Assembly (NCBI GenBank): GCA_964291215.2
Contig: OZ219790.1
Location: 2,400,001-2,464,000, forward strand
Length of the DNA: 64,000 bases
Direction of reading: 5' to 3'
Origin: Alphaproteobacteria bacterium
Lineage (GTDB): Bacteria; Pseudomonadota; Alphaproteobacteria; MPNO01; UBA830
Below the pieces are notes generated by a model. It was not told where the DNA came from. It searched no databases and saw nothing but the letters and a program-made list of their open reading frames with translations. Shown piece after piece: positions 2,968 to 61,650 of the stretch; within the stretch, counting starts at the first letter, position 1; each line of letters starts with the position of its first letter. A program made the position numbers and the translations under genes.

Positions 2968-3354
2968 GTGGCCACCTACGAGAAAGACGTGAAGCGCCGT
3001 CTGCGGAAGGAGGGGAAGCGCTTCCAGCGCCAGGCTGGAAGCCACGAGCAGTGGAAGAACGCGGACGGATCCGGTCACACCATTACTGTCCCGAGCAAGA
3101 TCAAGAGCCGCCACACCGCCAACAGCGTCATGCGCCAGGCAGGCCTCGCCCACCACGGCGATCCCACGCTAGGTTTGTTGGAAGGGTCGGTTTTGCTTGT
3201 TCAGGATGATTCGCATTTTCGCTGGCTTTTTGTGAAGCGGTGCCTGAACCCAAGTTGGCACTTTTTGCGTCAGTCGAAGGCGAAATTTATGCGGCCGCCC
3301 CGTTCGACATACTATATATTGTTGGCCTTTTTCTTGAACCCACTATATTTCTGA
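2968..3354 (+). CDS. hicA: HicA-family toxin; native stop replaced by IS sequence after 3153
   Basis: F.RQAGSHEQW.......ITVP..IKSRHTANSVMRQAGL; the tail reads through IS ends. Confidence 0.8.
   Translation: MATYEKDVKRRLRKEGKRFQRQAGSHEQWKNADGSGHTITVPSKIKSRHTANSVMRQAGLAHHGDPTLGLLEGSVLLVQDDSHFRWLFVKRCLNPSWHFLRQSKAKFMRPPRSTYYILLAFFLNPLYF
3154..3240 (+). mobile_element. isolated left end of the ISAs1-like element at 30830-32123
   Basis: reverse complement of 32037-32123 (CACGGCGATCCCACGCTAGG...). Confidence 0.8.
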
Positions 3355-5011
3355 TTGCGTGTCCGGGGTGGGCGCTGTAGTCCAGGATATTGCAGATTCG
3401 CTCGACCCCGCCGCCAAACCCGGTATATCCAGAGCCTCGTCAACACAAAAGGCTCCAGACAACATGTTCATCAGGGCAACCAAAACCCACAGCACCGCAG
3501 ACGGCAAACCCGTCCACCGGCTCGTGCTTTCTCAACGCATCAGCGACAAGGTCAGGCAGCGCACGCTGCCTCGGTACCGACTGTCCGGTGGCGCGCAAGA
3601 ACTGGAAGGAGGTTGCCGCCGAATCGCTGCTCCACGGCCGCCCGCCGCTGTTCGAAGCCGCGTGCAGGCTGCAGGACATCGTCAACAGGGGCCCCGGAGG
3701 TTCCGCGCCGACGCTCCAGAGGAAGACGCACGCAAATTGCGACCGTCAACCTCGACAGCCTCGAGAACCCGCGCCCGGTCGGCTGCCTGCGCCTCGAGGC
3801 GCGATCCCGGCTTCACGACCTCGGCATCACGAGTGCGCTGATCGTCGCCAGGATGATCCGCCAGCGAGCGCTGGCTGCGCGATGACAGCGCGGAGCTTCC
3901 GGAGGGCAAGGCGCGCAAGACGCCGTACCGCATAGGCGACCTGCGCCACCGGGCCGCCAGGAGCTGTTCAACCGTGAGCGCGCGCTGCATCCCCGACACC
4001 ATCGCATTTTACGACCTCACCAATGTTCACGGCCGCGCCGACGGCAAGCTTCCCCGCTTCGGGCGCTCGAAGCAGAAGCGCAATGATTGCCCCACGCTTG
4101 CACTCGACGGCGCGGGCTTTCGGCGCAGTTGCGAGGTCTTGCGGGGCAACGTGGCCGGGCACGGATGCGCTGCTGAGGCTAGAGGCGGGCGGCGAAGCCG
4201 ACGGTAGTCATGGACGCCGGCACCGAGGCGAACATCGCGTGGCGAGCACGGCTGGATCGCGGGCGGCGGCGCCCGAGGGTGGGCCCGAGGCTGATCACCA
4301 ACCACGAGGTGCAGGCGCCTTGCCAGCGAGGATGGCGCGGCGTGGTCAGCGAGAGCAGGAAGAGGGCCGAGGACGCCATTCCTGGCCGCAGGGCTTCGAG
4401 GCGGCAAAGCTCCACCTCCAAGGGCCGGCGCCACGACAAGGTGCCGGAGAGCGGTCTCGAGCAGCGCTTCTCCACCGTCGCCCGGCACTACGAGATCACC
4501 GTCGAGAAGGCCGGCGCCAACGCAACGGCCGTGCGCTTCAGCCACAGACGACAAGGCAGATGACAACGCGGGCGCCTGCGCACCAGCGACCGGGAGACCA
4601 TCCTCGGGACGTGGATCACGGATACCGAGGCCACCTTCCGTTCATTGAAATCCGAGCCCGGATTGCGCCCGATCCGGCTCGACCAGCGCATCGCCGCCCA
4701 CCTGTTGATCGCCGTGCTCGCCGCGGTGCATCTGATCCCCGCGCGGGGCATCGACAAGTGCTGGACATCAATCCGCGCGGAACCAGGGTCACCACGCGCC
4801 TGCGCCAGGCGCGTTGATCGTCAACCGACAGGACACGCACCGCCGAGGTCGCCGAAATCTCCTCGGCGGCTGGTGTCGAACCCACCGCACGAGGAGCCGC
4901 CTCACAAGCTGACAGAATTCAACGGAATGTAGTGCCATGTTGAAATCGGCCGACAAAAAAATCGCGCAACGTGATAAAAATTCCAGGCCGCAAAAAGTGC
5001 CAACTTGGGTT
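3247..5011 (+). mobile_element. IS1634-family element, transposase pseudogene
   Basis: 23 bp terminal IRs AACCCAAGTTGGCACTTTTTGCG; fragments MFIRATKT..HRLV.S.R...KVRQRTL, FYDLTN....FGRSKQKRNDCP, LKSE.GLRPI...AHL.IAVLA. Confidence 0.85.
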
Positions 5012-5302
5012 ATGGCAGCGTACCACCTTACCGGGCAGGATTCGCAGGTGAAGAATGCGTGGCTTGCAGTGCTGGCTCAGCCAGTTTGGCACTGGCCGTT
5101 TGTCCTCGTGACCGTCTTCGCCATACCTCTGTATATCGCCCACATCGTTTACGTCGGCGCCTTGAACCGTGATGATAGGCTTGGGAGCGCTGTCGATAAG
5201 ATGAGCGGCACAGCGGCGCGAATGACCTTGTTCGTGGCCATCCTGATCACGGTGGCCACCGGGCTTCTGCCGCTGGCCGATTTCCCCAGACTCCGGCCAT
5301 AG
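5012..5302 (+). pseudogene. 3' part of a membrane protein gene truncated by IS1634
   Basis: two hydrophobic segments; the ORF start lies inside the IS end. Confidence 0.4.
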
Positions 5303-5348
5303 CTGCTGGGCTGGGCTGGCCAACTGGCATGAAAAAACGGAGGCTCGG

Positions 5349-6027
5349 ATGTTGAATCCCACCAAGCGGAGCGGCGTTTCCCACTCGTTTTTTTCCGGTG
5401 GCCGTCATGGCCGGCGGATTGGCGGTCACAGGTCCCGCCGCAGGACAGAACGCGCCCGACGAAACCGCTCGCGAGGCTAAGCGGATCGAGTGTGTGGTAA
5501 AGGCGGGACGCCCCTTGGATTTCAAGCCGCTTACCCTCGGCTTCACGTTGTCCCTGTTGGGAAAGTCCGCGCTTAATCTCCAAAAGCGGGCATATGATAC
5601 GATAGTATACAACTACCCCTTACAACATTTCTTGAATCACAAAGAGGGGGTGAACTTGGATGACAAAGAGGGAATGAAGAAGTGGCTCAGTCGAATGAAT
5701 GCCTCGGGAGCTGGTAGCAGCAAGATCGCCTTGGTAACGCGGACCGCCGGAGATCAATACAAGGGCGTACCGCTAATGTGGGCAAGTATTTCGGAAAATT
5801 GCTCCATCGACATAGAGGGGCATCGGAACAAGCTGGATATCAGCGATGTCTGGTTAGCTAAGGGCTATGCGAGCGGCATGGTTCCCGCGACGACAACTCT
5901 CAAGACTTTCAAGCCCCTTGAAAAGTGCGGGAGGAACGCCAGCGAGGCTATTCTCTCTGTTGGGACTGGAAAGAGTAAAAAAAGGCGTAACTGCTCACCC
6001 CCTGGTTCCGGCTTGATGTCGGGGTAG
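5349..6027 (+). CDS. exported hypothetical protein, frameshifted at T7 (5388-5394), 3' end replaced by IS66 end
   Basis: GGAGG+ATG 5349 joins ORF 5398-6027 if one T is removed; signal-peptide-like N-terminus; lower GC; weak thermonuclease-like D.Y..../D....L.KGYA. Confidence 0.5.
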
Positions 6028-6084
6028 AGCAACGAACGGGTTTTCGTGGAGATTTTACACTGCAGGCCGATTCGTTTAGTGGTG
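5987..6084 (+). mobile_element. ~100 bp left-end remnant of IS66 (opposite orientation to adjacent copy)
   Basis: GTAACTGCTCACCCC... is the reverse complement of 7492-7592. Confidence 0.8.
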
Positions 6085-7592
6085 GTATCTACTCACCCCT
6101 AGTTGGGTTCTGATTGGCCGTAGTGCTCGTTGATGATGTCTGCGGCTTTTCCGTCGAGGGCGATCTGGGTGGCGACGAGTGGGTTGTAGCCGAGTGCGGC
6201 CATGGAGGTGAGGTAGCTTGAGCCTCGGCACCATGCTTTTGCGTGGAGCGGAAGCATCCGGACACCTTGACCTTTGCCATCCTGATCTTCTGTTCTCCGG
6301 CATTGTTGGTGAAGCTGACGTTGGGGTCGTCTGTGAAGCGCAGGTTTTCGTGTTTCACGAGACGTTCGTGCAGGTTGTGCGCGTCGGACTTGCGTCCACG
6401 TTTTCCTTTCGGCGGCGGCGAGATGTCGGGCAGTTCCTTGGCGCCCTGAGTGAGGATGGTGCGGTAGCGCTTGTGCACGGCCCGGCGGTCAGCCTCGTTC
6501 AAGGTTTTGGATGCGCTCTTGTTGATCTTGTGGCAGACCTCGCGGAGCAGGCTCTTCATCAGTCGCGCGGTAGCCTCGACGACAAAGGTCAGTTCGCGCA
6601 GCAGGTGGCTGCCGCACAGCTGGTGGCTACACTGGCCCATGTACGAGGCCCAGGACGCCCTTGTAGCACGGGCCGATCTCTTGCCCGCGCTTGCGGTGCG
6701 GGAACTTGCACGTCAGGGTCCCACGACATGGAGCCACTTGCTATTGATCCGAAATCGTCGACATCGGGCGTTGCAGGAGGTGCGCCACGGCAGCCTCCTC
6801 CCATGACGCATCGTGAAAGCATAGCCGAGGCCTCGGAGAGCTTGATGCCGGAGATCGCCTGCACGAGCGGCACGGCGCAGGGACAGCATCTGGGCGACCA
6901 GCAGGTTGATGACGAGGGCCTGGATGCCGTACTGCACGGGATGTTGTCGGGGAACCGGCCCTTGCACTTCGGGCATTCCTTGATCTCGGCGCGGCGCTCG
7001 ACGACCTCGAACACGATGTCGTAGAGGATGCAGCGCTCCCAATCGACGGGGCCGTCGGCGCCGCAGGCGTCGCAGGCCGCGACCGTCTCTTCGACGATGG
7101 TCTTGCACAGGTTGTCGCCCATCTGCCGGTTCGGCTTCGGGCCCTTGCTCCCGGCACGCTCTTGTCCGTCTGTGACGGCGGCAGACCGGAGTTCCGGCTC
7201 GTGCGTGGTCTTCTCCAGAAGGACGACGATGATGATGTCGAGCAGGATGACGAAGACGCGGATCACGGCCTCTTCCGCCACCTTGCCGGCAGCGCCGCGG
7301 TCTTGGCCGCTTCGAACTCCTCGCGCGCCGCCCGTCGCCATCACCCGGCCTTGCGCTTCATCAGCGCGCCGCTTCCGAGATGCGTTTCCACATACAGATC
7401 ATGCGGAGGCTGGAGCCCCGGAAGCAGCTGGCACAACCCGCCGTCGACTTCGATCCAAAGTAGCCCACTGGCGGTCCCCGTCGTTCTCGATTACCACCAC
7501 TAAACGAATCGGCCTGCAGTGTCAAATCTCCACGAAAACCCGTTCGTTGCTCTACCCCGACATCAAGCCGGAACCAGGGGGTGAGCAGTTAC
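6085..7592 (-). mobile_element. IS66-family element, degraded transposase plus Dam-like passenger fragment
   Basis: ends GTAACTGCTCACCC / GTATCTACTCACCC; HQLCGSHLLREL, FTNNAGEQKIRMAKVKVSGCFRS, CxxC zinc-finger remnants. Confidence 0.88.
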
Positions 7593-16884: not shown

Positions 16885-16995
16885 AGGTGATCCCATGCTT
16901 GTTGATGTGATGTGATCGGAGTCCTGATCGCGGCGCGGGTCGACGCGTTCGAGGCTGCGATTTTGAGATTTGCTGACGCGCTGTTGCGGCGCGGG
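16885..16995 (-). mobile_element. ISAs1 3'-end fragment
   Basis: near-identical to 29066-29177. Confidence 0.7.
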
Positions 16996-17026
16996 CTGTC
17001 CATTAGTCATAAATCCTGTCATAACG

Positions 17027-18460
17027 TATCTACTCACCCCTTGTTGGGTTCTGATTGGCCATAGTGCTCGTTGATGATATCTGCGGCTTTTCCGTCGAGG
17101 GCGATTTGGGTGGCGACGTGATGATTGTAGCCGAGTGCGGCCATGGAGGTGAGGTAGCTTGAGCCCCGGCACCATGCTTTTGCGTGGAGCGGAAGCATCC
17201 GGACACCTTGACCTTTGCCATCCTGATCTTCTGTTCTCCGGCATTGTTGGTGAAGCTGACGTCGGGGTTGTCTATGAAGCGCAGGTTTTCGTGTTTCACG
17301 AGACGTTCGTGCAGGTTGTGCGCGTCGGACTTGCGTCCACGTTTTCCTTTCGTCGGGATGTCGGGCAGTTCCCTGGCGCCCTGATGATGCGGTAGCGCTT
17401 GCGCCCGGCGTCGTTCAGGGTTTTGGATGCGCTCTTGTTGACCTTGTGGCAGACCTCGCGGAACAGGCTCTTCATCAGTCGCGCGGTAGCCTCGACGACA
17501 AAGGTCAGTTCGCGCAGCAGGTGGCTGCCGCACAGCTGGTGGCTACACTGGCCCATGTACGAGGCCCAGGACGCCCTTGTAGCACGGGCCGATCTCTTGC
17601 CCGCGCTTGCGGTGCGGGAACTTGCACGTCAGGGTCCCACGACATGGAGCCACTTGCTGTTGATCCGAAATCGTCGACATCGGGCGTTGCAGGAGGTGCG
17701 CCACGGCAGCCTCCTCCCATGACGCATCGTGAAAGCATAGCTGAGGCCTCGGAGAGCTTGATGCCGGAGATCGCCTGCACGAGCGCGACGGCACGGCGCA
17801 GGGACAGCATCTGGGCGACCAGCAGGTTGATGACGAGGGCTTGGATGCCGATGCCGTACTGCACGGGATGTTGTCGGGGAACCGGCCCTTGCACTTCGGG
17901 CATTCCTTGATCTCGGCGCGGCGCTCGACGACCTCGAACACGATGTCGTAGAGGATGCAGCGCTCCCAATCGACGGGGCCGTCGGCGCCGCAGGCGTCGC
18001 AGGCCGCGACCGTCTCTTCGACGATGGTCTTGCACAGGTTGTCGCCCATCTGCCGGTTCGGCTTCGGGCCGTTGCTCCCGGCACGCTCTTGTCCGTCTGT
18101 GACGGCGGCAGACCGGAGTTCCGGCTCGTGCGTGGTCTTCTCCAGAAGGACGACGATGAGGATGTCGAACAGGATGACGAAGACGCGGATCACGGCCTCT
18201 TCCGCCACCTTGCCGGCAGCGCCGCGGTCTTGGCCGCTTCGAACTCCTCGCGCGCCGCCCGTCGCCATCACCCGGCCTTGCGCTTCATCAGCGCGCCGCC
18301 TCCGAGATGCGTTTCCACATACAGATCATGCGGGGGCTGGAGCCCCGGAAGCAGCTGGCACAGCCCGCTCGTCGCCTTCGATCCAAAGTAGCCCACTGGT
18401 GGTCCCCATCGTTCTCGATGACCACCACTAAGCGAATCGGCCTGCAGTGTCAAATCTCCA
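17027..18460 (-). mobile_element. IS66-family element copy 2, left end cut by IS30
   Basis: collinear with 6085-7532. Confidence 0.88.
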
Positions 18461-19660
18461 CCCCACTTCCAGTCTGAAGTGCAACATCCGGCCCTCATCG
18501 CAGTGAGGGCGTAGCCCGAACGGAGATGAGGGCCGGATGTTGCACAAATTTTTCCCCTCTGCCCTTCTCGATTCCGCCTGGAAACAGCTTCAGTTCCTTC
18601 AACATCGAGCTTATGCAACGCCTTTGTCGGCTTCAAGCCACTATTTCGCCGTCGCGCGGCATGGACCCTGCTGCACGTTGCGGCTTTGGAACGCAGATGG
18701 TCAGCGCGGTTTCACTTCAAGATTACCTCCGTCGGCGATCCCAGGACTTTCCGAGTGTTGAGCCGCACCTTCTGAACATCTTCGTTGCATGTCGCGCGAA
18801 AGTCCGTGCCCTTCGGGAAGTACTCCCGCACCAGGCCGTTGGTGTGCTCATTCAAGCCGCGCTCCCAGGAATGGAAAGGCGAAGAAGAAATCTGCGTCAA
18901 GTGCGACACGCCTGTGGTCTGCGAACTCCTTGCCGTTGTGATTGTGTGGACCAATAGCGCACCAGAGCCGAGCAGGCGGATCATGACCGAACCGACCGTG
19001 TCTTTCTGTCCACCCGGCAAGGTGTATTTCGTGGCACGAGCGACACGACAGCTCCACTGTGAGCTTTGCCGATGATGGCTCCCAGTCGCCGATCCGTTCC
19101 TTTGCCTCCGCAGGGCGCTCGGAAATGTCCACCCGGCCAGAATGGCATCCGCCCTTCCAGTTCGGCTTCTTGCCGCGCCGCCGAAGCTTCTTCCACAAGA
19201 CGCCCCCGGCTCTCCGATCTTCATGAATGCGATCATAGATCCGTTGCCGACCCACTGGGCGGCCCTCCAGTCGAAAACGGCCGCTGATCTGCTCGGGGCC
19301 CTCCCGCAGCTTTTTCTGAGCTTCAGCCCGAGGCGTCAACCGCCAAGAAACAGACGAGGCGGCCCTGCGTTTCTGCCATCCTTTGCGCCTGCTTGTGACG
19401 ATAACCCCGTCCCCCGGTGTTGCGCTTGATCTCCCGGAAAATTGTTGATCGGCCCAGCTGCCGAGCAATCGCACCTTGTGAAAGACCGCTTTTCTGCCTC
19501 AATCTGGCATCGCTCTTCGTAGGTGACGGTAGCCTTTGGACATGAACAAGCTCCCTTCATCTTGTACAGGAACTCTCGCCGCTACCGCTCCGCAACATCA
19601 TGCGTCTAAAAACACATGGCCACAGCCCATCATGTGTTGCACTTCACTATGGAACGGGGG
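18461..19660 (-). mobile_element. IS30-family element copy 1 (degraded)
   Basis: ends CCCCACTTCCAGTCTGAAGTGCAACA / TGTTGCACTTCACTATGGAACGGGGG; STIFREIKRN, ISERP....R.GDWE, SWERGLNEHTNGLVREYFPK. Confidence 0.9.
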
Positions 19661-34298: not shown

Positions 34299-34344
34299 CG
34301 AGCGCGACCCCGTCCCGTCTGCCAGCTATCGGCCTGAAGGAAGG

Positions 34345-36825: not shown

Positions 36826-36933
36826 GGCTTCAAGATGACGACTTGCGGAACCGCTGGCAAGGTCTTGAAACCCGGAACGAAGCGCATATATGGGAGTGAA
36901 CGCCTCAACACAGCGCACCGGAGAGTTACGCCC

Positions 36934-41228: not shown

Positions 41229-42070
41229 GCGCCGTCTCCGCCATCGCGCGCGGCGCGGACAGCGCCCGCGAGCTCGGACACGAATCCCAGGGCCGGGGCG
41301 ACGACGCGGTCCGCGGCGCCCGACATGCCGCCATCCTCTACCGCCTGCCTGATCTTCTCGACGATGGCCGTCCCCACGACCGCCGCGTCGGTGACGCGCA
41401 CGATCTCCGCGGCCTGTTCCGGGGTCCGGATTCCAAAGCCGACCGCGATCGGAAGCCCCGACCTCGAGCGAATTCGTGCGAGTTGCTCCTTGATCTCGGC
41501 AACCTGCGCCGACTTGGTCCCCGTGATGCCGCGCACCGAGACATAGTAGATGAACCCGGAGGCGCCACGGACGAGCTCGTCCATCCGCGCCTCCGTGGAT
41601 GTGGGCGCGAACAGGCGCACGATATCGATCCCCGCCGCCCGCGCCGGTTCGGCGAGCTCGGCTTCCTCTTCCGGCGGCAGGTCGACGACGATCAGCCCGT
41701 CGACGCCGGCGTCCCTGGCCTCTTCGGCGAACTTCGCGGGGCCGCGGGCATGGATCGGGTTGTAGTAGCCCATGAGCACGATCGGCGTTTCGCCGTCCGC
41801 ATCCCGGAACCGCGACACCATCGCCAGCGTCCTGTCCATCGTCTGCCCCGCAGCCAGCGCCCGTCCGCCGGCGCGCTCGATTTCGGGGCCGTCGGCCATC
41901 GGATCGGTGAAGGGCATGCCGAGTTCGATCACGTCGGCGCCTGCGGCCGGAAGCCCGGCCAGGATGTCGGCGGACAGTTCGGGACTGGGGTCGCCGGCGG
42001 TCACGAAGGTGACGAGCCCGCCGCGGCCTGCGGCGCGGAGCGCCGCGAAACGCGCCTCGATGCGGCTCAA
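41225..42070 (-). CDS. trpA: tryptophan synthase alpha subunit
   Basis: [26 protein letters not shown]. Confidence 0.97.
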
Positions 42071-43278: not shown

Positions 43279-43366
43279 CGGCGCACGGCCCGTTCGCGCG
43301 GCCGTAAAACCCCGCGGCCGCGGGCAGGGACCGGATTGTTGGCCTCCGGGGCCTGGACTGACATCC

Positions 43367-44020
43367 TCATCGCGAAGCCTCCGTGGTGGCGCCGAGAAAG
43401 GCGCCGATAAGCGCCGGGTCCTTGAGCCCGGGCGCCGATTCGACGCCGGACGAGACATCGACGGCTGGAGCGCCCGAGATCCGTATCGCATCCGCGACGT
43501 TTCCCGGCGCGAGTCCGCCCGACAGCATCCAGGGAAGCCGCCATTCGCGCCCCGACAGGATACTCCAGTCGAAGGCGACCGCGTTGCCTCCCGGCATCGC
43601 GTTGATCATACGCGCAGGCGTCTTGGCATCAAACAGCAGCATGTCGGCAACCTCGAGATAGCGGTCGGCTACCGCCAGGTCCGCCGCCTCCGACACCTTG
43701 ATCGCCTTCATTACCCGCCGCCCGGCGCGGTTGCGGATCCCGACGACCCGATCCGGCGTCTCGCGGCCGTGAAGCTGCAGCATCACCGACGGCGAGATCG
43801 CGGCAAGGCGGTCGACGAGACCGTCCTCCGGATCGACGGACAGCGCGACCGGCACCACGTCCGGCGGCAGCAGGGCGGCAAGCTCGACCGCCCGCTCGGG
43901 CACGATATGGCGCGGCGACACCGGATAGAAGACGAAGCCGACATAGCGAGCGCCGCTGACGACTGCGGCCTCTAGCGCGTCGCGGCTGCTGACGCCGCAG
44001 ATCTTGACGTCGACCGTCAT
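43367..44020 (-). CDS. trpF: phosphoribosylanthranilate isomerase
   Basis: [18 protein letters not shown]. Confidence 0.96.
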
Positions 44021-44787
44021 CCGAGGGCCTCCGAGATCTCCTTCGCGATACGCCTCGCCACGGCCGCGGGATCGTCGGCACCGGTGATCGGCCGCCCGAT
44101 GACGAGGTGGTCGGCGCCCGCGGCGATCGCGGCGGCCGGCGTCATGATGCGTTTCTGGTCGTTCCTTCCCACCCAGCCGGGGCGGATTCCAGGGACCACC
44201 AAGGCCGGTCCGGGGCCGATTTCCTTGCGGATGGCCGCGGCCTCGTGCGGCGAACAGACGACCCCGTCCATACCGCTCCGCGCCGCGAGGCCGGCCAGCC
44301 GTACGGCTTGGTCCGCCGCTGCTCCGCGCTGGCCGACGGCGTCGAGATCCCGGTCATCGAGGCTGGTGAGCACGGTGACCGCGACAATCCGCGGCCGCGG
44401 CGCGGCAGCGCTCGCCGCGGCCTCGGCGGCGGCGCGCAGCATGGCCTCGCCGCCGGACGCGTGGACGGTGAGCAACGCGCAGCGGAGCGCGGCCGCGGCG
44501 CGCACGGCGCCAGCGACGGTATTTGGGATGTCGTGGAATTTGAGGTCGAGGAACACCCTGTGGCCAGCATCGACGACTCGGCGCACCCCCTCCGGCCCGT
44601 GGGCGGCGAAGAATTCGCTGCCGAGCTTGATGGCGCCGACTTCGCCGGCCAGAAGTTCGGCCAGCAGGAGGACCTCGTCTAGGCGCGTACTGTCGGCCGC
44701 GCAGAAGATGCGGTCGGCAATCGGCACTTCCGCCGTCGGCGCGGCCGTCGGACGGGGTGTGCCGCTCCGCCCTGTCCGTTCAGTCAT
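44017..44787 (-). CDS. pyrF: orotidine-5'-phosphate decarboxylase
   Basis: FLDLKFHDIPNTV, VPGIRP, IGRPIT. Confidence 0.96.
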   Translation of the reverse strand: MTERTGRSGTPRPTAAPTAEVPIADRIFCAADSTRLDEVLLLAELLAGEVGAIKLGSEFFAAHGPEGVRRVVDAGHRVFLDLKFHDIPNTVAGAVRAAAALRCALLTVHASGGEAMLRAAAEAAASAAAPRPRIVAVTVLTSLDDRDLDAVGQRGAAADQAVRLAGLAARSGMDGVVCSPHEAAAIRKEIGPGPALVVPGIRPGWVGRNDQKRIMTPAAAIAAGADHLVIGRPITGADDPAAVARRIAKEISEALG

Positions 44788-45130
44788 CAAGGAAGCGTGC
44801 CGGCAGCGAACGCGTCTCGGCCGCGGCAATCCGGGCGTCCGGCGCGCCGGGAGACATCGTCCCTGCGCCGCCCCGCGGCTCGAGGCGCCGGAGCTCGCGT
44901 TCCGCATGCCGTGCGCGCCGCCGCCAGCGGCTGCCGGCCAGCCAGCCGACCGCTATGCCGATGAACACGCCAGTCGCCAGCGCTGCAAAGGTCCACACCG
45001 AAACCGGCACCTCGATGGCGGCCGGCAGGGGCCAGAAATGGATGGATACGGGCTGCAGGTTCTTGACTGTGAACGCGCCAAAGACCAGCGCCAGGGGTAT
45101 GAACAGGGCTATTGCCGCAAGACGCTTCAC
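44780..45130 (-). CDS. lapA: LapA (DUF1049) family membrane protein
   Basis: F.V.N.QPV...WP two-TM pattern; conserved position between ihfB and pyrF. Confidence 0.75.
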   Translation of the reverse strand: MKRLAAIALFIPLALVFGAFTVKNLQPVSIHFWPLPAAIEVPVSVWTFAALATGVFIGIAVGWLAGSRWRRRARHAERELRRLEPRGGAGTMSPGAPDARIAAAETRSLPARFLDD

Positions 45131-45190
45131 GGCCGGGCCGCCGAAGTCTGCATGTCACCGTCGATCCCGCTGCACCGCGCGGCCCGCCGG

Positions 45191-45505
45191 TCACCGTTCG
45201 CGGTTAACCCGGTCGAGCAAGCCCTTGCTGGCGCGGAAGAAAGGGACGAATTTCCGGCCGACCCTGATCGCCTCGCCGGTCCGCGGGTTGCGCGCATTCC
45301 GGGGCCGGCGATCCCGCACCGAGAAGGATCCGAAGCCGCGCAGTTCGGCGCGCCTCCCTTCCGCCAGGGCCTGCGCAATCTCGTCGAACACGAGCGAGAC
45401 CAGCGCCTTTACTTCGCTCTGCCGGAGGTCGGGATTCTGCCTCCAGAGGGCCATCACCAGATCCGACTTTGTGATCGACCGGGGTTCGTCTTGCTGCTTT
45501 TCCAT
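45191..45505 (-). CDS. ihfB: integration host factor beta subunit
   Basis: TKSDL, ELRGFGSF, ARNPRTG; follows rpsA. Confidence 0.92.
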   Translation of the reverse strand: MEKQQDEPRSITKSDLVMALWRQNPDLRQSEVKALVSLVFDEIAQALAEGRRAELRGFGSFSVRDRRPRNARNPRTGEAIRVGRKFVPFFRASKGLLDRVNRER

Positions 45506-45598
45506 TTCCTGAACCAGCCGTTAGTGGACCGACAGATGTTTCCGGCGCGTATCCCGCGGCAGGACGGCGCCCGCCGGCAAAAGGGGTCCGCCTCGCTC

Positions 45599-47383
45599 CT
45601 ACTTCTCCTCGCCGTCATCCGGCTCGCCGGCCGCATCCTCGGCTGCGGGTTCTTCGGCCGCGGCCGACTCGTCGCTGTCCTCACGTGCGCGCTGCAATGC
45701 GGCGCCCAGGATGTCGCCGAGGCTTGCCCCGGAACTCGACGAGCCGTAATCGGCGATCGCCTGTTTCTCCTCGAGCGTCTCGTGGGCCTTGATCGACAGC
45801 GTGAGCTTGCGGTCTCGCTGATCGATGTTGGTCACCTGGGCGTCGATCCGGTCGCCTTCCGCGAATCGGTCGGGGCGCTGCTCGCTGCGCTTGCGCGAGA
45901 GCTCGGAGCGCCGGATGAAACCGGCGATGACGCCGCTGACGACCACCTCGAGACCGTTGTCGGTCACGGCGGTGACGGTGCAGGTGACGGTTTCGCCCTT
46001 GCGGATGTTGCCCAGCGGGCCGGCCACCGGGTCGTCCGACAGCTGCTTGATGCCGAGACCGACGCGTTCCTTGGAGAGATCGATGTCGAGCACGCGGACG
46101 CTGACCACATCGCCCTTCTTGTAGTTCTTGACCGCTTCGGCGCCGCTCTGGTCCCATGACAGGTCGGAGAGATGCGCCATGCCGTCGATGCCGCCGGGCA
46201 GCTCGATGAACAGGCCGAATTCCGTGATGTTCTTGATCTCGCCCTCGATCTCCGAACCCGGCGGATAGCTCTCGGCGAAGGACTCCCACGGATTGTCGTG
46301 GCACTGCTTGAGGCCGAGGCTGACCCGGCGCTTGTGGGCGTCGACCTCGAGCACCATGACCTCCACCTCCTGGCTGGTGGAGACGATCTTGCCGGGATGG
46401 ACGTTCTTCTTGGTCCAGCTCATTTCCGAGACGTGGACCAGCCCCTCGACGCCGGCCTCAAGCTCGACGAAGGCGCCGTAGTCAGTGATGTTGCTCACTC
46501 GTCCGGTGAACTTGGCGCCGGCCGGGTACTTGGCCGCGATGCCTTCCCACGGATCCGGCAGAAGCTGCTTCATGCCGAGCGAGATGCGCTGGGTCTCGGA
46601 ATTGTAGCGGATGACCTGCACCGTCACCGTCTCGCCGATCGTCAGCACCTCGCTGGGATGGTTGACGCGCCGCCAGGCAATGTCGGTCACGTGCAGCAGG
46701 CCGTCGACGCCGCCGAGATCGACGAAGGCGCCGTAATCGGTGAGATTCTTTACCATGCCTTCCAGGACCTGGCCCTCCTTCAGGCTGGCGAGCAACTCGG
46801 CGCGCTGTTCGGCGCGCGACTCCTCGAGTACCGCGCGACGCGACACCACGATGTTGCCGCGGCGGCGGTCCATCTTGAGGATCTGGAACGGCTGCGGGCT
46901 GCCCATCAGGGAGGTGACGTCCCGAAACGGACGGACATCGACCTGCGATCCGGGCAGGAAGGCGACGGCGCCCGACAGGTCGACCGTGAAACCGCCCTTG
47001 ACGCGTCCGAAGATGGTGCCGGTGACCTTGTCGCTTCTCTGGTAGGCGAGCTCCAGCTGCGTCCACGCCTCCTCGCGCCGGGCGCGTTCACGGCTGAGCA
47101 CGGCCTCGCCGTTGCGGTCTTCCATTCGTTCCAGATAGACATCGACGATGTCGCCGGGCTTGATCTCGGGAGGCTGCCCGGACACGCCGAACTCTTTCAG
47201 CGGAACCCGGCCCTCGGACTTGAGGCCGATATCGATCAGGACGTCGTCGCCATGGATGGACAGAACCGTTCCCTTGACGACGGCGCCTTCCAGCGGCTGG
47301 CCATCGCCGAAACTCTCGTCAAGCAGCGCGATGAAATCGTCCGTGTGGGCTGCCTCTGCAGCGGAGCCACTCTCTATGCTCAT
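45599..47383 (-). CDS. rpsA: 30S ribosomal protein S1
   Basis: repeated S1 domains (DYGAFV, GLLH, RISLG). Confidence 0.98.
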   Translation of the reverse strand: MSIESGSAAEAAHTDDFIALLDESFGDGQPLEGAVVKGTVLSIHGDDVLIDIGLKSEGRVPLKEFGVSGQPPEIKPGDIVDVYLERMEDRNGEAVLSRERARREEAWTQLELAYQRSDKVTGTIFGRVKGGFTVDLSGAVAFLPGSQVDVRPFRDVTSLMGSPQPFQILKMDRRRGNIVVSRRAVLEESRAEQRAELLASLKEGQVLEGMVKNLTDYGAFVDLGGVDGLLHVTDIAWRRVNHPSEVLTIGETVTVQVIRYNSETQRISLGMKQLLPDPWEGIAAKYPAGAKFTGRVSNITDYGAFVELEAGVEGLVHVSEMSWTKKNVHPGKIVSTSQEVEVMVLEVDAHKRRVSLGLKQCHDNPWESFAESYPPGSEIEGEIKNITEFGLFIELPGGIDGMAHLSDLSWDQSGAEAVKNYKKGDVVSVRVLDIDLSKERVGLGIKQLSDDPVAGPLGNIRKGETVTCTVTAVTDNGLEVVVSGVIAGFIRRSELSRKRSEQRPDRFAEGDRIDAQVTNIDQRDRKLTLSIKAHETLEEKQAIADYGSSSSGASLGDILGAALQRAREDSDESAAAEEPAAEDAAGEPDDGEEK

Positions 47384-47456
47384 GGTCCATCCCTGTTGTT
47401 CGCGCATGATCATGCCGGTTCGGCGGCCTCCGGTGCACACCGAAGACAACCCCGCG

Positions 47457-48110
47457 TCAGTTCCCGTTGTTCCGCGTCAGGATGACCGACATTGCCACAT
47501 CGAATACAGCATCCACATCAAGATGCGTCGTGTCAATGACGGTCGCGTCGTCGGCCGGCACCAGCGGCGCCGTTGCGCGGGTGCGATCTCGCGTATCACG
47601 TTCCTTCATATCCCGCAGGACATCTTCAAGTCTAGCATCCATTCCCCTGTCTCGCAACTCCGCAAGTCGGCGCCGCGACCGTTCCGCGACGCTCGCGTCA
47701 ATGAACAGCTTGACGTCGGCACCCGGGCAGATGACGGTGCCGATATCGCGCCCCTCGAGCACCGCGCCGCCGGCGCCGCCGGGCGGCGCGGTGGCGAAGT
47801 CGCGCTGCAGGTCCCTGAGCGCGTCCCGGACGCCCGGGATGGCCGCGACGATTGTGGCCGCGTTCCCCGTCGCTTCCCGGCGAAGCGCCGCACCCGCGCC
47901 GTCGAGCGCCGCAAGATCGAAGCCGGTGGCAACCGCGACCGCTGCCTTCGGGTCTCCGGGGTCGATTTCGCGACGCAGCAGCTCGAGGCCGACGGCGCGG
48001 TAGAGCAGGCCCGTGTCCAGGTGCGGATAGCCGAGCCTGACCGACAGCCGGCGCGCCAGCGTTCCCTTGCCGCTGGCCGCCGGACCGTCTATCGCGACGA
48101 CGACAGGCAT
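47457..48110 (-). CDS. cmk: cytidylate kinase
   Basis: AIDGPAASGKGT, EGRDIGTV. Confidence 0.97.
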   Translation of the reverse strand: MPVVVAIDGPAASGKGTLARRLSVRLGYPHLDTGLLYRAVGLELLRREIDPGDPKAAVAVATGFDLAALDGAGAALRREATGNAATIVAAIPGVRDALRDLQRDFATAPPGGAGGAVLEGRDIGTVICPGADVKLFIDASVAERSRRRLAELRDRGMDARLEDVLRDMKERDTRDRTRATAPLVPADDATVIDTTHLDVDAVFDVAMSVILTRNNGN

Positions 48111-48111
48111 G

Positions 48112-49437
48112 TCAGCCCCCGGCGGGCGTGATCTGTGCGCCCACTCCGTTCATGAGGTCGACGAAACCGGGGAAACTGGTGCCGATGGCCGCGCCGTCAT
48201 CGATACGGACCGCCTCGCGCGCGGCCGCGCCGAGCACCAGGAATGACATCGCGATCCGGTGATCCAGATCGACCCTGATAATGCCGCCGCCGGGCGGCGG
48301 ACCGCCGCAGCCGGCGATCAGGATGTCGTCGCCATACGCTGCCGCGTGTACGCCGCAGGCCGCCAGGCCGTCGACGATGGCGTCGAACCTGTTGCTTTCC
48401 TTGACCCTGAGTTCGCCGAGGCCACACATCCTCGTGTCGCCGACGGCGCAAGCCGCCGCCATTGCGACGACCGGATACTCGTCGATCATCGACGGTGCCC
48501 GTTCCGCCGGAATCTCGACGCCGCGGAGAGGACCGTGGCGAAACACGATGTCGGCGACCGGCTCGCCGGCCTCGCTGCGGCGGTTGGCAAAGACGATGTC
48601 AGCGCCCATCTCCTCGAGCGTCCGCATAAAGCCGCAGCGCAGCGGATTGACGCCGACGCCGGCTACTACCAGCTCGGAACCCGGCGTGACGAGGGCCATG
48701 ATCCCGGGGAACGCCGCGGAGGAGAGATCGCCGGGTACCAAGACGTCCACGGGCCGAAGCTCGGCATGGCCTTCGACCGCAACGACAATCCCGCGGTCGG
48801 TCGCCGCGGTCTCGATCGACGCGCCGAAGGCGCGCAGCATGTTCTCCGTATGGTCGCGCGTGGCACTCCGCTCGATCACCGTCGTGCGCCCGGGCGTGTT
48901 CAGGGCGGCAAGAAGGATCGCCGACTTCACCTGCGCCGACGGCACCGGGCTCTCGTATTCCATGGGTACCGGGTCGCGCGCGCCGCGCAGCAGCAACGGT
49001 AGGCGCCCGCGGCTGGCGGCGTCGAACGACGCACCCATGCGCGAAAGCGGAAGGATCGTCCGGTCCATCGGCCGTCGGCACAGCGAGGCGTCGCCGGTGA
49101 CGTGGGCGTCGAGGGGCTGGGTCGCGAGCAGCCCCATCACCAGCCGTGCGCCGGTGCCTGAATTACCGAAATCGAGAACCGCGTCGGGCCGGGCGAGGCC
49201 ACCGACGCCGGCGCCGTCGACCACCCATGCGCCGTCCTCCCTGCGTATCAGAGCGCCAAGCGCCGCGAGCGCCGACGCCGTCCGCAGGACATCGTCGGCC
49301 TCGAGAAGTCCGTCGATGCGCGTGCGTCCGACCGCGCTTGCGCCGATGATCAGCGCGCGATGCGAAATCGACTTGTCGCCGGGAACCCGGATGCGGCCGC
49401 TGACCGGGCCGGCTCGAGTTGATTGCAGTGCTGCCAC
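48112..49437 (-). CDS. aroA: EPSP synthase
   Basis: PGDKSISHR, GNSGT, SAQVKS, ELRVKES, DHRIAM; start codon inferred. Confidence 0.97.
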   Translation of the reverse strand: MAALQSTRAGPVSGRIRVPGDKSISHRALIIGASAVGRTRIDGLLEADDVLRTASALAALGALIRREDGAWVVDGAGVGGLARPDAVLDFGNSGTGARLVMGLLATQPLDAHVTGDASLCRRPMDRTILPLSRMGASFDAASRGRLPLLLRGARDPVPMEYESPVPSAQVKSAILLAALNTPGRTTVIERSATRDHTENMLRAFGASIETAATDRGIVVAVEGHAELRPVDVLVPGDLSSAAFPGIMALVTPGSELVVAGVGVNPLRCGFMRTLEEMGADIVFANRRSEAGEPVADIVFRHGPLRGVEIPAERAPSMIDEYPVVAMAAACAVGDTRMCGLGELRVKESNRFDAIVDGLAACGVHAAAYGDDILIAGCGGPPPGGGIIRVDLDHRIAMSFLVLGAAAREAVRIDDGAAIGTSFPGFVDLMNGVGAQITPAGG

Positions 49438-49668: not shown

Positions 49669-50857
49669 CCCCACTTCCAGTCTGAAGTGCAACACCCGGC
49701 CCTCATCGCAGTGAGGTCGTAGCCCGAACGGAGATGAGGGCCGGGTGTTGCGCAAATTTTTCCTCTCTGCCCCTCTCGATTCCGCCTGGGAACAGCTTCA
49801 GTTCCTTCAACATCGAGCTTATGCAACGCCTTTGTCGGCTTCAAGCCACTATTTCGTCGTAGCGCGGCATGGACCCTGCTGCACGTTGCGGCTTTGGAAC
49901 GCAGATGGTCAGGGCGGTTTCACTTCAAGATTACCTCCGTCGGCGATCCCGGGACTTTCCGAGTGTTGAGCCGCACCTTCTGAACATCTTCGTTGCATGT
50001 CGCGCGAAAGTCCGTGCCCTTCGGGAAGTACTCCCGCACCAGGCCGTTGGTGTGCTCATTCAAGCCGCGCTCCCAGGAATGGAAAGGCGAAGAAGAAATC
50101 TGCGTCAAGTGCGACACGCCTGTGGTCTGCGAACTCTTTGCCGTTGTGATTGTGTGGACCAATAGCGCACCAGAGCCGAGCATCATAACCGAACCGACCG
50201 GGTCTTTCTGTCCACCCAGCAAGGTGTATTTCGTGGCACGAGCGACACGACAGCTCCACTGTGAGCTTTGCCGATGATGGCTCCCAGTCGCCGACCCGTT
50301 CCTTTGCCTCCGCAGGGCGCTCGGAAATGTTCACCCGGCCGGAATGGCATCCGCCCTTCCAGTTCGGCTTCTTGCCGCGCCGCCGAAGCTTCTTCCACAA
50401 GACGCCCCCGCCTCTCCGATCTTCGGCGATCATGGATCCGTTGCCGACCCACGGCCTTCCAGTCGAAAACGGCCGCTGCTCGGGGCCCTCCAGCAGCTTT
50501 TTCTGAGCTTCAACCCGAGGCGTCAACCGCCAGGAAACAGACGAGGCGGCCCTGCGGCGCGTTTCTGCCATCCTTTGCGCCTGCTTGTGACGGTAACCCC
50601 GTTCCTCGGTGTTGCGCTTGATCTCCCGGAAAATTGTTGATCGGCCCAGCTGCCGAGCAATCGCACCTTGTGAAAGACCGCTTTTCTGCCTCAATCTGAC
50701 ATCGCTCTTCGTAGGTGACGGTAGCCTTTGGACATGAACAAGCTCCCTCCATCTTGTACAGGAACTTTCGCCGCTGCTGGACAGCTCCGCAACATCATGC
50801 GTCTAAAAACACATGGCCACAGCCCATCATGTGTTGCACTTCACTATGGAACGGGGG
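49669..50857 (-). mobile_element. IS30-family element copy 4 (degraded)
   Basis: same ends and body as copy 1. Confidence 0.9.
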
Positions 50858-51240: not shown

Positions 51241-51410
51241 GCTGCTCCCGTCATTGCGCCGAAGACCTGCGGGCATGCCCGTTGTCCGGACCTGCGCATG
51301 GCGCTGCCTGCCTGTTCGGCATCTTGCCCGTATCGGCACTGTCCAGATTCCAACGAACGCCGACACGAAAATACTACCCACCAAAACCATCAATACAATG
51401 CCGGTGTACT

Positions 51411-52531
51411 ACTAGCGTCTTGTCATTCGTAAAATGTCGGATAAAGGCGTTTGAGTTTCACGCGGGCATCGTCGGTGGTGAACTGCCAATCCACCTTGGT
51501 CTGGATGCGGTCGCCTGCCAAGCGGCAACTTCCCGGCGTAGCACCTCGATGCAGTCGATGCGGCGGTTCAGGCGGATCATGACGTTGAGTTCCACCACGT
51601 TCAGCCAACTGCCATGCTTGGGGGTGTAGACGAACTCGAAGCGGTCCCACAGGGCCTTGGCCTCGTCCGGCGGGTAGGCCTCGTAGAGGGCGCCGGGGAG
51701 TGTTGAGATTGTCCATCACCAGGGTGATGGTGGTGGCATCCTGGTAGCGCCCGGCGATGTCGGCCAGGAACTGCGCCCAATCGATCTTGCGCTCGGTTAC
51801 CTTGGTCATGCGCTTGCCGGCCAGGGGTTCCGTGAAGACGTTGCAGGTACCGCAACGTCGATACTCGTAGTCGTTACGCGCTGGCTGTCCCGGCGCCATG
51901 GCGATCGGTTGCCGTGTCTCGCCGGTCGGGGCGTTTCGTCCATGCAGACCACGGGGAAAGCGGCGGGACGGCGATCGAGCACCTTCGCTGCGGCGAAGTC
52001 GGCGTTCCCTTGAGGAGGAATCACCCACCCGCTGCCATGGCTTGAGGCAGTTTTTTTTAGAACACGCCGCACCGTCTCGTGTGACACGGTGTAACCAAGC
52101 TCGACAACGCGGTCGGCCAGCAGCCGCAACGACCATTGCGCGTAACCCTCAGGCGGTTCACCACAACTCAGGGCCACCAAGCGCGCCTCGAAGACGCCGT
52201 CGGCTTTTCGCATGTAGGTAGGACGGCGCCGGCCACCCAATGCCGCCTCCAGCCCCTCGAAACGCTTCTTTACTCGGTCTACTTTGCGCATGCTGATGCG
52301 CAGAATCTCGGCAATGACCTTCCCGGTCATCTGGCATTCATTGAACGCGCCCTCGTCGCAGTTAAGCAGGGCGTTGATTACCTTTTGCGACAGGTGCGAG
52401 CCCTTGATCTCCGAAAGTTCTGCCCGTTCGTCCAAGGTCACCACGTAGCGTTTCATACTCCGACCTCCATCCCGAATGGACGGACAGTCTAGCACCAAAT
52501 GTACGACATATCATTGCTGACATAACACTAG
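51411..52531 (-). mobile_element. IS630-family element (degraded)
   Basis: CTAG-bounded ends; WSLRLLAD, SHETVRRVLKK with A8 slip site, VCMDE, LVMDNLNT, WQFTT.DAR.KLKRLYP. Confidence 0.88.
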
Positions 52532-55653: not shown

Positions 55654-56837
55654 CCCCCGTTCCATAGTGAAGTGCAACACATGATGGGCTGTGGCCATGT
55701 GTTTTTAGACGCATGATGTTGCGGAGCTGTCCAGCAGCGGCGAGAGTTCCTGTACAAGATGGAGGGAGCTTGTTCATGTCCAAAGGCTACCGTCACCTAC
55801 GAAGAGCGATGCCAGATTGAGGCAGAAAAGCGGTCTTTCACAAGGTGCGATTGCTCGGCAGCTGGGCCGATCAACAATTTTCCGGGAGATCAAGCGCAAC
55901 ACCGGGGGACGGGGTTACCGTCACAAGCAGGCGCAAAGGATGGCAGAAACGCAGGGCCGCCTCGTCTGTTTCCTGGCGGTTGACGCCTCGGGCTGAAGCT
56001 CAGAAAAAGCTGCGGGAGGGCCCCGAGCAGCGGCCGTTTTCGACTGGAGGGCCGTGGGTCGGCAACGGATCCATGATCGCCGAAGATCGGAGAGCTGGGG
56101 GCGTCTTGTGGAAGAAGCTTCGGCGGCGCGGCAAGAAGCCGAACTGGAAGGGCGGATGCCATTCCGACCGGGTGGACATTTCCGAGCGCCCTGCGGAGGC
56201 AAAGGAACGGATCGGCGACCGGGAGCCATCATCGGCAAAGCTCACAGTGGAGCTGTCGTGTCGCTCGTGCCACGAAATACACCTTGCCGGGTGGACAGAA
56301 AGACACGGTTGGTTCGGTCATGATGCTCGGCTCTGGTGCGCTATTGGTCCACACAATCACAACGGCAAAGAGTTCGCAGACCACAGGCGTGTCGCACTTG
56401 ACGCAGATTTCTTCTTCGCCTTTCCATTCTTGGGAGCGCGGCTTGAATGAGCACACCAACGGCCTGGTGCGGGAGTACTTCCCGAAGGGCACGGACTTTC
56501 GCGCGACATGCAACGAAGATGTTCAGAAGGTGCGGCTCAACACTCGGAAAGTCCTGGGATCGCCGACGGAGGTAATCTTGAAGTGAAACCGCGCTGACCA
56601 TCTGCGTTCCAAAGCCGCAACGTGCAGCAGGGTCCATGCCGCGCGACGGCGGAATAGTGGCTTGAAGCCGACAAAGGCGTTGCATAAGCTCGATGTTGAA
56701 GGAACTGAAGCTGTTCCCAGGCGGAATCGAGAGGGGCAGAGGGGAAAAATTTGCGCAATACCCGGCCCTCATCTCCGTTCGGGCTACGCCCTCACTGCGA
56801 TGAGGGCCGGGTGTTGCACTTCAGACTGGAAGTGGGG
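55654..56837 (+). mobile_element. IS30-family element copy 5 (degraded)
   Basis: same ends and body as copy 1. Confidence 0.9.
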
Positions 56838-59838: not shown

Positions 59839-60156
59839 TTGACGCGCGCGTTCTTCTTCGCCTTGGGACTCGTAATGGCCATGAACACCGCATGCGCGGG
59901 GCCGGGCAAGACGGACAGGACGCCCGCTTCGATCGATTCGCGCATTGTGGCGGTGGTGGTGGAAGACGGCGTCATCTACACTCCTGCAAGCCTTGGCCCG
60001 CAGGGGTGCGTACTGTACAGCCTCCGCATTCCGGGCGGGCAGGCACCTGCCGCGCTGGTATACCGGAGCTTGGAAGGTCGATTCGGCTACGACCGACCGA
60101 AGCAGTGCGTCAAGCGCCCGAAAATTGTAATACCAGCGGCGCCGGTTCCTGACTGA
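59839..60156 (+). CDS. small exported hypothetical protein
   Basis: signal-like N-terminus, Cys pair, 4 bp after the protease stop. Confidence 0.6.
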   Translation: MTRAFFFALGLVMAMNTACAGPGKTDRTPASIDSRIVAVVVEDGVIYTPASLGPQGCVLYSLRIPGGQAPAALVYRSLEGRFGYDRPKQCVKRPKIVIPAAPVPD

Positions 60157-60202
60157 TGACAGGGATTTCCTCACGGCCCGATTTCTGATTCCAGGTCGGC
60201 GG

Positions 60203-60445
60203 GTATCTGCTCACCCCTCCGTAGAGATGGGTTTGGCGTTGTGCATTTTGATCATGTCGGCGGCGTTTCCGGCGAGTGCGATCTGGGTGGCGACGAGTGA
60301 GTTGTAGCCGAGTGCGGTGATGGAGGTGAGATAGCTTGAGATTCGGCACCAGGCCTTGACGTAGAGCGGGGTTCGGAAACATCCGGACACCTTGATCTTG
60401 ACCTTTGCCATCCGGATTTTCTTCTCACCGGTGTTATGGGTGCAG
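60203..60445 (-). mobile_element. IS66 3' fragment
   Basis: end GTATCTGCTCACCC; KIRMAKVKIKVSGCFRT...WCRISSYL. Confidence 0.85.
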
Positions 60446-60559
60446 TTCTCGCATGGCGAATGCAAGTCATTGATTTAACATGGTTTTGTGGCTGCGAGGC
60501 AGCGGCAAAAACGGGTTTTCGTGACAATCGCCCGTTTCAGGACAGGATTTTGTCACGGG

Positions 60560-60884
60560 CCGAGCGGTGGAGGTGGGAACGTTCTGCACCGCAAGATGCG
60601 ATATGATATTGGAGACAATCCACAGCATCAGGAGCGCTCGCATGTCAGTTTCGCAGCCTTCCGCGTCGATCGATATTTCCGGCTTGCCGCCTCGGGTTGT
60701 CGAGGCGGTCACGCAGATAACCGCGGTTTGTCATCGGCAACTCGGTTCGCAGCGCTCTGCCGAGGCCTTTGAGGAAACGGAGCGACGGGTGCGTGAGAGC
60801 GTGTACGCGCTGCGAGATCCTGGGTGCCGAGGCCCGGGACGACGGTGCGCCCCGGATCGAGCGGGACGGGCAGAGATGGTTCCG
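60560..60884 (+). mobile_element. possible ISKra4-like transposase 5' remnant, interrupted by the intron
   Basis: AFEETERRV; DDGAPRIERDG.RW; family call tentative. Confidence 0.35.
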
Positions 60885-61650
60885 GTGTGCCAGGCGAACT
60901 GGCAGGAGGTAGGGGGTGAAAGTCCCCTGAAACGAAGGAGTAACCAAACCGCGTTTCTCCGCGAGCGTCGGTTCCCGCGAGGGAGCAGGCGAAGCGTCGG
61001 TAGCGGGGCTAATGAGCACCGAAAAGCTCATGGTTCGGGGTGCCGAGGCTCGGTCGAAGGCAACATCGCAGGCATCGATTTGGTGAGATGAACCCACCCA
61101 CCCCGCCTGTCGGGACCGTGCAGGGAAGGAGAAAGCCGAAGCCTATGAGGAACGGTTTGAAGAAGGGGGCCTGTGAAGGCGGCGAACAAGGGAGTTTCTG
61201 CGGAGCCGCTGGAGGAAAGGGCCTCGACCAAGGGGAATCCGGGACGCCAAAGCACGCACCGAACGCAGTGTCGGGTGCCACAGGAGGCGGACCGGAGCTG
61301 CAGAGAGAGAAACCCGAAGGAACGTGCACTCTTCCATCACGCCGGATGGGCTCCGGGCGGCCGGTCTGAAGAAGGAAGCCTCGGCAGGTGTCGACGGCGA
61401 GGGTCTGGACGAGCGCTTGCTCGATCTGCACTCGCGCCTGCATCGTGGGGGAGCGTACCGGGCGTCGCCGGTGGGTTGAGATACCGGGACACGACCGCTT
61501 GCCGCACTGGAGGACAAGATCGTTCAGAAGGCGGTTGTGGATGTGATCCTGACACCGATTTATGAGGTGGAGTTCCTTGGCTACGGGTTTCGACCGAGGG
61601 ACGCTCTCGACGCCCTGGCGTCGAGCGGCGCAAGGTCAACTGGATAGTCC
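60885..61650 (+). mobile_element. group II intron 5' half with degraded reverse transcriptase
   Basis: GTGTG 5' end, GGTGAAAGTCC domain I motif; ASAGVDG, L..RL.RG.YR, EDKIVQKAV, YGFRP, ALDAL, VNWI. Confidence 0.8.

Follow-up and report, generated by a model that had tools for sequence, protein, structure and literature searches.

Why are the insertion sequences (IS) in one stretch of the genome of an uncultured alphaproteobacterium riddled with short gaps while the core genes between them are intact? The question is raised by a window of 64,000 bp (G000:C1:2400001-2464000; feature coordinates below are counted from the window start) in the source genome G000, which consists of two contigs totaling 6.15 Mb, has a GC content of 64% and is 99% complete. 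About 36-37% of the window is present as another copy elsewhere in the genome, and the elements in it number ~10-190 copies each genome-wide. A look-up for counterparts of this stretch in other genomes gave none; a relative diverged by ~5% is present in the sponge metagenome run X4. A preliminary description of the window saw the gaps as confined to mobile DNA and ascribed them to a strong microhomology or slippage process of deletion. The observation is real, but the deletions are mostly not due to slippage and their source is genome-wide, and their high density in repeats probably comes from copying between copies.

Size, polarity and origin of the deletions

All of the DNA motifs first quoted were found at their places, and the dense short deletions reported in the mobile DNA were borne out. 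In the nine near-full IS copies that five families have in the window, 187 substitutions stand against 266 deletions, of which 191 measure 5-7 bp and 5 occur in a single copy, partial copies being excluded from these and the following counts, and the deletion counts outside family B being upper bounds because the "maximal" reference sequences take in a few true duplications. Genome-wide, the median deletions and substitutions per near-full copy were 36 and 25 in the IS66-like family B (164 copies), 19.5 and 16 in family D (48 copies), 33 and 23 in family E (77 copies), 39 and 30 in family F (19 copies), and 36 and 21 in family G (33 copies). Among 1444 clean indel sites from 900 repeat alignments across the genome, those of 1 to 8 bp numbered 158, 40, 27, 13, 211, 472, 257 and 59, respectively, with 940 sites at 5-7 bp compared with 13 at 4 bp and 59 at 8 bp. 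The spacing of the deletions had a coefficient of variation of about 1, and no periodicity was detected.

The polarity of the events was settled in family B. With its variable pieces of 4-20 bp restored, this family forms a single frame of 520 codons (one of the pieces, 18 bp long, is a genuine duplication, and the alignment is poor in one stretch), and 248 of 484 residues are identical to those of an intact transposase of the sister genome G001; the majority consensus splits into three frames. The long allele is therefore ancestral, and the events are deletions common to most copies. The opposite polarity, suggested by the majority consensus, against which the events look like insertions, was overturned by this outside homologue, and transposon footprints or tandem duplications were rejected since few events are perfect duplications.

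The deletions were said to lie often at short direct repeats, which is true for a minority of sites. At 218 shared sites, microhomology of 0, 1, 2, 3, 4 and at least 5 bases was found 76, 60, 39, 24, 12 and 7 times (115, 61, 26, 10, 3 and 3 by chance), so that 136 sites (62%) have 0-1 base and 82 have two or more. Slippage or microhomology as the main cause is thus not upheld, because the sizes are locked at 5-7 bp, microhomology is 0-1 base at most sites, neither mutS nor mutL is broken, and indels of 1 bp are rare. One deletion end favors the motif S|RYC, that is, C or G before the cut followed by R-Y-C (expectation-maximization log-likelihood of 344 vs 98 and 117 for controls), which was present at 194 of 498 repeat sites against 18% by chance.

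The proposed confinement to mobile DNA did not hold, as single-copy DNA carries the same deletions. From 305 kb sampled from G001, in which almost none of these elements occur, 204 kb were aligned to single-copy DNA of G000 at 7-9% divergence. Pieces of 5-7 bp were missing 44 times in G000 and 11 times in G001 (p=9e-6; 28 vs 5 for 6 bp), whereas 1-bp gaps were balanced (41 vs 44); the polarity here rests on this count asymmetry rather than on a per-site outgroup. The S|RYC motif was present at 17 of 37 single-copy sites (24% expected, p=0.003), and several contigs of related taxa covering a single-copy stretch are 6 or 7 letters longer than G000. The density of 5-7 bp events was 18 per 34.3 kb (~0.5/kb) in non-coding single-copy DNA versus ~14-19/kb in the IS of the window, a difference of ~25-35-fold by arithmetic from the two counts. 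This contrast between repeated and single-copy DNA was drawn through G001 because the single-copy pseudogenes obtained by tblastn of congeners included too few real ones, most matches being antisense ORFs. Contigs of run X3 on single-copy DNA, mostly coding, showed ~260 substitutions and, among the differences listed, no 5-7 bp indel.

Congeners of the source genome differ in this respect: the signature is present in G000, G002 and G004 and was not seen in G001 and G003, as judged from samples only. Repeats of G002 hold 96 sites of 5-7 bp, and S|RYC was present at 32 of 81 (18% expected). In 400 kb samples, losses of two residues in intact core proteins relative to G000 were in excess in G004 (12 vs 0) and G002 (18 vs 4), with no such excess in G003 (1 vs 3) or in G008 (4 vs 4). 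The source of the deletions is genome-wide, because single-copy DNA shows the same sizes and end motif and core proteins of congeners show the two-residue losses. The two options initially considered, namely a genome-wide process masked by selection and one directed at repeats, are thus each supported in part; of recognition of foreign DNA as such there was no sign.

Sharing between copies and rival explanations

The frequency of 5-7 bp indels depends on copy number. Per 100 substitutions they number 2.2, 4.4, 6.0, 8.4, 17, 21 and 31 in bins rising from 2 to at least 100 copies (45 pairs each; a single pair accounts for 20 of the 49 events of the 2-copy bin), whereas indels of 1-4 bp are flat at 4-7. 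For the 157 sites carried by 8 copies or more, the dominant length was found in 7552 of 7625 instances (99%), and one length per site, although the process makes three, points to a single origin per site. The deletions are not inherited along a tree, as their changes on the tree of single-nucleotide polymorphisms (SNPs) amount to 0.78-0.98 of the shuffled number. At distances of 1-4 and 5-8 bp, linkage (r2) between deletions and SNPs was 0.36 and 0.09, respectively, compared with 0.48 and 0.38 between SNPs; SNP patches span 10-15 bp, and co-conversion around the deletions is very short.

Four family D copies with identical insertion junctions, including the one at 55654-56837, differ at 10 places, all of which are family-wide deletions and fit no single tree, and one same-junction pair has 7 such differences vs 6 substitutions with no indel in 521 bp of flank. 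Together with the near-shuffled homoplasy, this suggests that the same indel state was gained after the copies had separated. Flank-sharing pairs in family B were dropped in favor of these copies, as most proved false owing to neighboring IS. A bias of transfer towards the shorter allele is indicated indirectly, from frequencies in one family: in family B, the derived state reached at least 50% in 22 of 62 deletions of 5-7 bp, compared with 8 of 96 polarized SNPs (p=4e-5) and 0 of 17 deletions of 1-4 bp (p=0.002). Away from shared sites, 721 private substitutions were accompanied by 12 private deletions of 1 bp and by none of 5-7 bp. It is likely that each deletion has a single origin and then spreads to other copies by one-way copying. 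Hypermutable methylated sites were rejected as a source of the shared SNPs, since there is no context bias and transversions are shared too.

It is plausible, at what we judge to be about an even chance, that a rare genome-wide origin of 5-7 bp deletions is combined with one-way transfer by loop excision in short heteroduplexes. A lineage-specific activity would make 5-7 bp deletions anywhere at ~1 per 100 substitutions; two copies would then pair briefly in a RecA-type heteroduplex, the intact strand would loop out 5-7 bases opposite its deleted partner, and a putative nuclease-plus-ligase step would remove the loop with at most ~4 bases of flank. The lower size limit could be set by MutS, which would handle loops up to ~4 nt; bacterial mismatch repair (MMR) is described as efficient up to that size (PMC2504288). 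More copies would provide more origins and more donors, large old families would fill with deletions, and selection would keep single-copy genes clean except for some in-frame 6 bp losses.

Several points weigh against this scheme. It does not account for the abrupt end of the size range at 7 bp. Deletions are not alone in their mosaic distribution, as SNPs are also shuffled between family B copies (r2 ~0.01-0.02 beyond 30 bp), and the copy-by-copy phasing is taken from the assembly. Separate insertions into paralogous targets could have given rise to the four same-junction copies. Microhomology of at least 3 bases is in excess (43 sites vs 15.5 expected), and some events may therefore be of the slippage type. 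A young IS66 family (~13 copies, 99.8% alike) already shares SNPs and yet has no deletion of 5-7 bp in 11 pieces covering 23.6 kb with 20 distinct substitutions, so that no copying in progress is visible; this result fits a slow origin, the test being of low power. In addition, none of 16 candidate enzyme families, searched in the five genomes G000-G004, tracks the positives (G000, G002, G004) against the negatives (G001, G003).

For the repair genes, mutS and mutL are both open in the source genome, the MutS N-terminus being conserved, and recA, ruvC, recJ, xseA and topA are open as well, so that, with the 12 isolated 1-bp deletions mentioned above, an MMR-deficient mutator is not indicated. 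Ku (the search covered Ku, not LigD), Piwi, TopIB, S1/P1, EndoV and RecT were each found in 0 of the 5 genomes, and Ku-dependent end joining is therefore not indicated. NucS-like matches occurred only in G002, in a search set that did not include G001; gene absences in G001 are in any case weak, as that genome is 93% complete. Vsr and a methylase-HNH fusion were rejected, being present in G002 and G004 and absent in G000, and the presence of reverse transcriptase (RT), Rpn/YhgA, ExoVII, RecJ, RuvC, RecA, MutS, MutL and TopA does not track the signature. Rpn/YhgA-like nuclease genes, one locus of which lies at 19630-20700 of the window, gave 12 matches genome-wide in G000, 16 in G002 and 2-5 in the others. 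Comparison of the TopA, MutS and RecA sequences likewise gave no match to the pattern of positive and negative genomes. The RecA of G004 (L246) is unusually diverged, with a 4-residue insertion.

TopA deserves mention since the E. coli topA R35P change gives repeat-independent deletions of 1-7 bp (1-4 bp in the cases listed) with hotspots, an instance of one enzyme change leading to short deletions (Bachar et al., PMC6954433). The TopA of G000, however, keeps its arginine motifs (E. coli residue numbers being mapped by motifs), and its changes are common to the signature-negative G001. The residue before the catalytic tyrosine is Ser in G000, G001 and G004 and Thr in 22 of 22 genomes outside the genus; it does not track the signature.

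Two known processes resemble parts of the proposed scheme. Nonallelic gene conversion in Drosophila and primates favors deletions by ~3.4:1 across indels of many lengths (Assis and Kondrashov 2012, PMC3280953). Length differences between paralogues likewise resolve to the shorter allele there, and neutral repeats shrink together, but the present case is bacterial, with a 5-7 bp lock, an end motif, at most ~4 bp of flank, and deletions outnumbering substitutions per copy. MMR-independent large loop repair in its loop-directed mode removes a loop regardless of a nick, its E. coli proteins being unidentified according to the paper, and loops above ~4 nt escape efficient bacterial MMR; the known activity spans loops of up to hundreds of bases, with neither a 7-nt ceiling nor a motif (PMC2504288). 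No report was found in the literature of loop-directed repair as a genome-scale force on IS.

A tentative possibility, one to which we would give perhaps a minority share of belief, is that an acquired, hitherto undescribed enzyme cuts loops of 5-7 nt out of paired DNA at S|RYC sites, which would make it a deletion drive that propagates itself and works against any multicopy element.

It is rather doubtful that the copying instead goes through short single-stranded pieces of cDNA or of degraded DNA annealing at replication forks. Here the genome-wide source would be the same, MutS would clear loops of up to 4 nt, and loops of 5-7 nt would escape and be fixed by replication without a loop nuclease. 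The very short co-conversion, the 10-15 bp SNP patches, the intact MMR and the many RT remnants in G000 agree with such fragments; however, RT is present in the negative G001 and was not found in the positive G004, RecT was not found, DprA is present in G001-G004 and does not pass the cut-off in G000, and neither the end motif nor the steep fall in numbers between 7 and 8 bp is explained.

In fungi, repeat-induced point mutation (RIP) introduces new C-to-T changes into both copies of a repeat through a methyltransferase-like enzyme in a dinucleotide context. A dedicated homology-sensing defense of this kind, which would recognize repeats, cut new 5-7 bp deletions into them and spread these, appears unlikely, even though repeated DNA is selectively and progressively inactivated in both cases, the IS are ~25-35 times denser in deletions than non-coding single-copy DNA, the effect of copy number is monotonic, and the patchy presence across the genus is as expected of an acquired factor. 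The lesions are deletions common at identical sites rather than C-to-T changes (C>T changes have no dominant context), they extend with their motif to single-copy DNA, old families show no isolated new singletons of 5-7 bp, and no Argonaute Piwi domain was found. Near-identical young repeats would be the first targets of a RIP-like process, and the young IS66 family is spared, so that repeats are not attacked on sight, subject to the low power noted above. The element of this family at G000:C1:2496179-2498550 (L242; related loci L009 and L011) has a passenger ORF of ~230 aa with no Pfam match; a similar-looking upstream ORF in IS66 elements of G001 and G004 resembles a DNA methylase.

Ordinary slippage or microhomology end joining, hidden in genes by selection and spread by transposition and unbiased conversion, is improbable, and the size lock together with the spectrum of frequencies largely refutes it. 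The three examples quoted in the preliminary description have 2-7 bases of microhomology each, matches of at least 3 bases are 2.8-fold in excess, and SNPs are shuffled too. However, most shared sites lack the two or more bases expected of end joining, 1-4 bp deletions and SNPs stay below high frequency, the sister G001 lacks the signature, and the size spectrum does not fall from 1 bp. Bacterial pseudogenes show a power law of deletion sizes with an excess of 3n and 2-11 nt of microhomology in 43% (Danneels et al. 2018, PMC6054270). Deletions exceed insertions in those host-associated bacteria without Ku, as here, but in the present genome the peak is as pronounced at 5 and 7 bp as at 6 bp, 1-4 bp are rare, and the events are common to copies.

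Independent recurrence, in which a site-specific enzyme would produce the identical deletion anew in each of many copies and nothing would be copied, is very improbable; the end motif would agree with it, as would the fact that carriers are often SNP-monomorphic within 1-4 bp, but this one-ended motif is a weak one, present at 39% of sites, although 99% of instances per site have one length, there is no tail of weak sites with a single event, and the density depends on copy number. An artefact of assembly or polishing, for which the only argument is that the per-copy phasing comes from the assembly, is ruled out as far as testable and exceedingly improbable, given that pre-assembled contigs of the independent runs X1-X3, used for strain comparison although they break in repeats, carry 5-6 bp variants inside IS, that X1 contigs match ~16 kb of the single-copy core block with 0 differences, that a recent duplicate pair is identical over the IS and 800 bp of flank, that the young IS66 family has no such gaps, and that G002 has the same sizes and motif in different repeats.

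Elements of the window

The two IS66-family elements of family B (~190 copies) lie on the minus strand at 6085..7592 (PF03050; 29 substitutions) and 16990..18460 (no private deletion), each with 37 deletions, 28 of which are of 5-7 bp, and a fragment of the same family at 60100..60470 (minus strand, ends approximate) retains the long MAKVKIKVSG allele. Family D (~65 copies) is represented by four copies, at 18461..19660 (minus strand; 18 deletions, 15 of 5-7 bp), 32402..33579 (minus; 22 and 19), 49669..50857 (minus; 20 and 17, with 5-6 bp variants in independent contigs) and 55654..56837 (plus; 21 and 18, both insertion junctions common to three other copies), and by a partial copy at 23750..24700 (no strand assigned, ends approximate from the coverage profile), which holds the long allele quoted at 24262. 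The family may be IS30-like, a label taken from an HTH_38 match below the cut-off in another copy. An IS256/Mutator-family element (family E, ~95 copies; 22326..23572, plus strand) matches PF00872 in three fragments and has 34 deletions, 20 of 5-7 bp. Repeat families F (~50-65 copies; 29063..30841, no strand assigned) and G (~46 copies; 30849..32125, minus strand) are without Pfam matches and have 41 and 36 deletions, 27 and 19 of them of 5-7 bp; the family G copy, which may be ISAs1-like to judge by a motif, shows nested losses of 5, 11 and 17 bp at one place.

The size peak is identical in three other elements, each of which lacks distinct 5-7 bp pieces: repeat family A (~25 copies; 3247..5010, no strand assigned, no Pfam match; 35 pieces present in other copies), an IS630-family element (~45 copies; 51410..52530, minus strand, HTH_32 and DDE_3; 15 pieces present in other copies) and a degraded group II intron (~10-17 copies; 60438..61648, plus strand; 10 pieces within 60880-61648). 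The notion that every IS is broken is correct for the elements of the window and fails genome-wide, where the young IS66 family has no such gap. The intron RT had also been called broken; the intron RNA is backed by Rfam (RF02005 at 60919-61118) and the copy shows the losses, but no RT domain was recognized by Pfam in the window fragments. For the IS630 family, summed contig depth relative to single copy is several-fold higher in run X3 than in X1, which hints at copy-number differences between strains, depth being a poor measure.

The control region, a single-copy core block at 33966..49437 on the minus strand (an S4-domain gene, a helicase gene, folC, accD, trpA, trpB, trpF, pyrF, lapA, ihfB, rpsA, cmk and aroA), is intact as described, with full-length Pfam matches and 5 of 5 matching G004 orthologues in one frame. 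A short repeat (~50-140 copies) resembling a miniature inverted-repeat transposable element lies between folC and accD (40185-40375) and at 53170-53260. Slam-family genes stand next to unannotated ORFs of 520-590 aa (9865-16679 and 53968-55521), with ~10 diverged copies genome-wide; the ORFs are open, have few 5-7 bp gaps and are likely a surface lipoprotein family. At 62100-63615 a HigB-type toxin gene adjoins an HTH/IrrE-like gene. Low-copy islands of the genome (L175, L184) hold GC-rich F-type conjugation genes and a three-integrase (RIT-like) element.

Implications for multicopy mobile DNA

The loss of dead IS copies in bacteria is usually put down to drift and large deletions, and no homology-dependent process is known that inactivates whole IS families. 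A literature search, mostly without subscription papers, gave no account of deletions locked in size at 5-7 bp that spread from one bacterial IS copy to another. If the copying holds, it would be a hitherto undescribed means by which bacteria disable multicopy mobile DNA. If an acquired excision enzyme is responsible, its deletion drive would be a bacterial functional counterpart of RIP that works by deletion, the two-residue scars in core proteins would be collateral damage, and the enzyme would come and go among species of one genus, with G000, G002 and G004 having it and G001 and G003 not seen to. As repeats carry more of the signature than of point mutations, and sister genomes differ in it, the causal gene should be findable by comparing the five genomes, and the excess of two-residue deletions in core proteins may serve as a marker for finding the process in other lineages. 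The system may thereby offer a handle on the proteins of MMR-independent loop repair in bacteria and on how IS bursts in symbionts stop.

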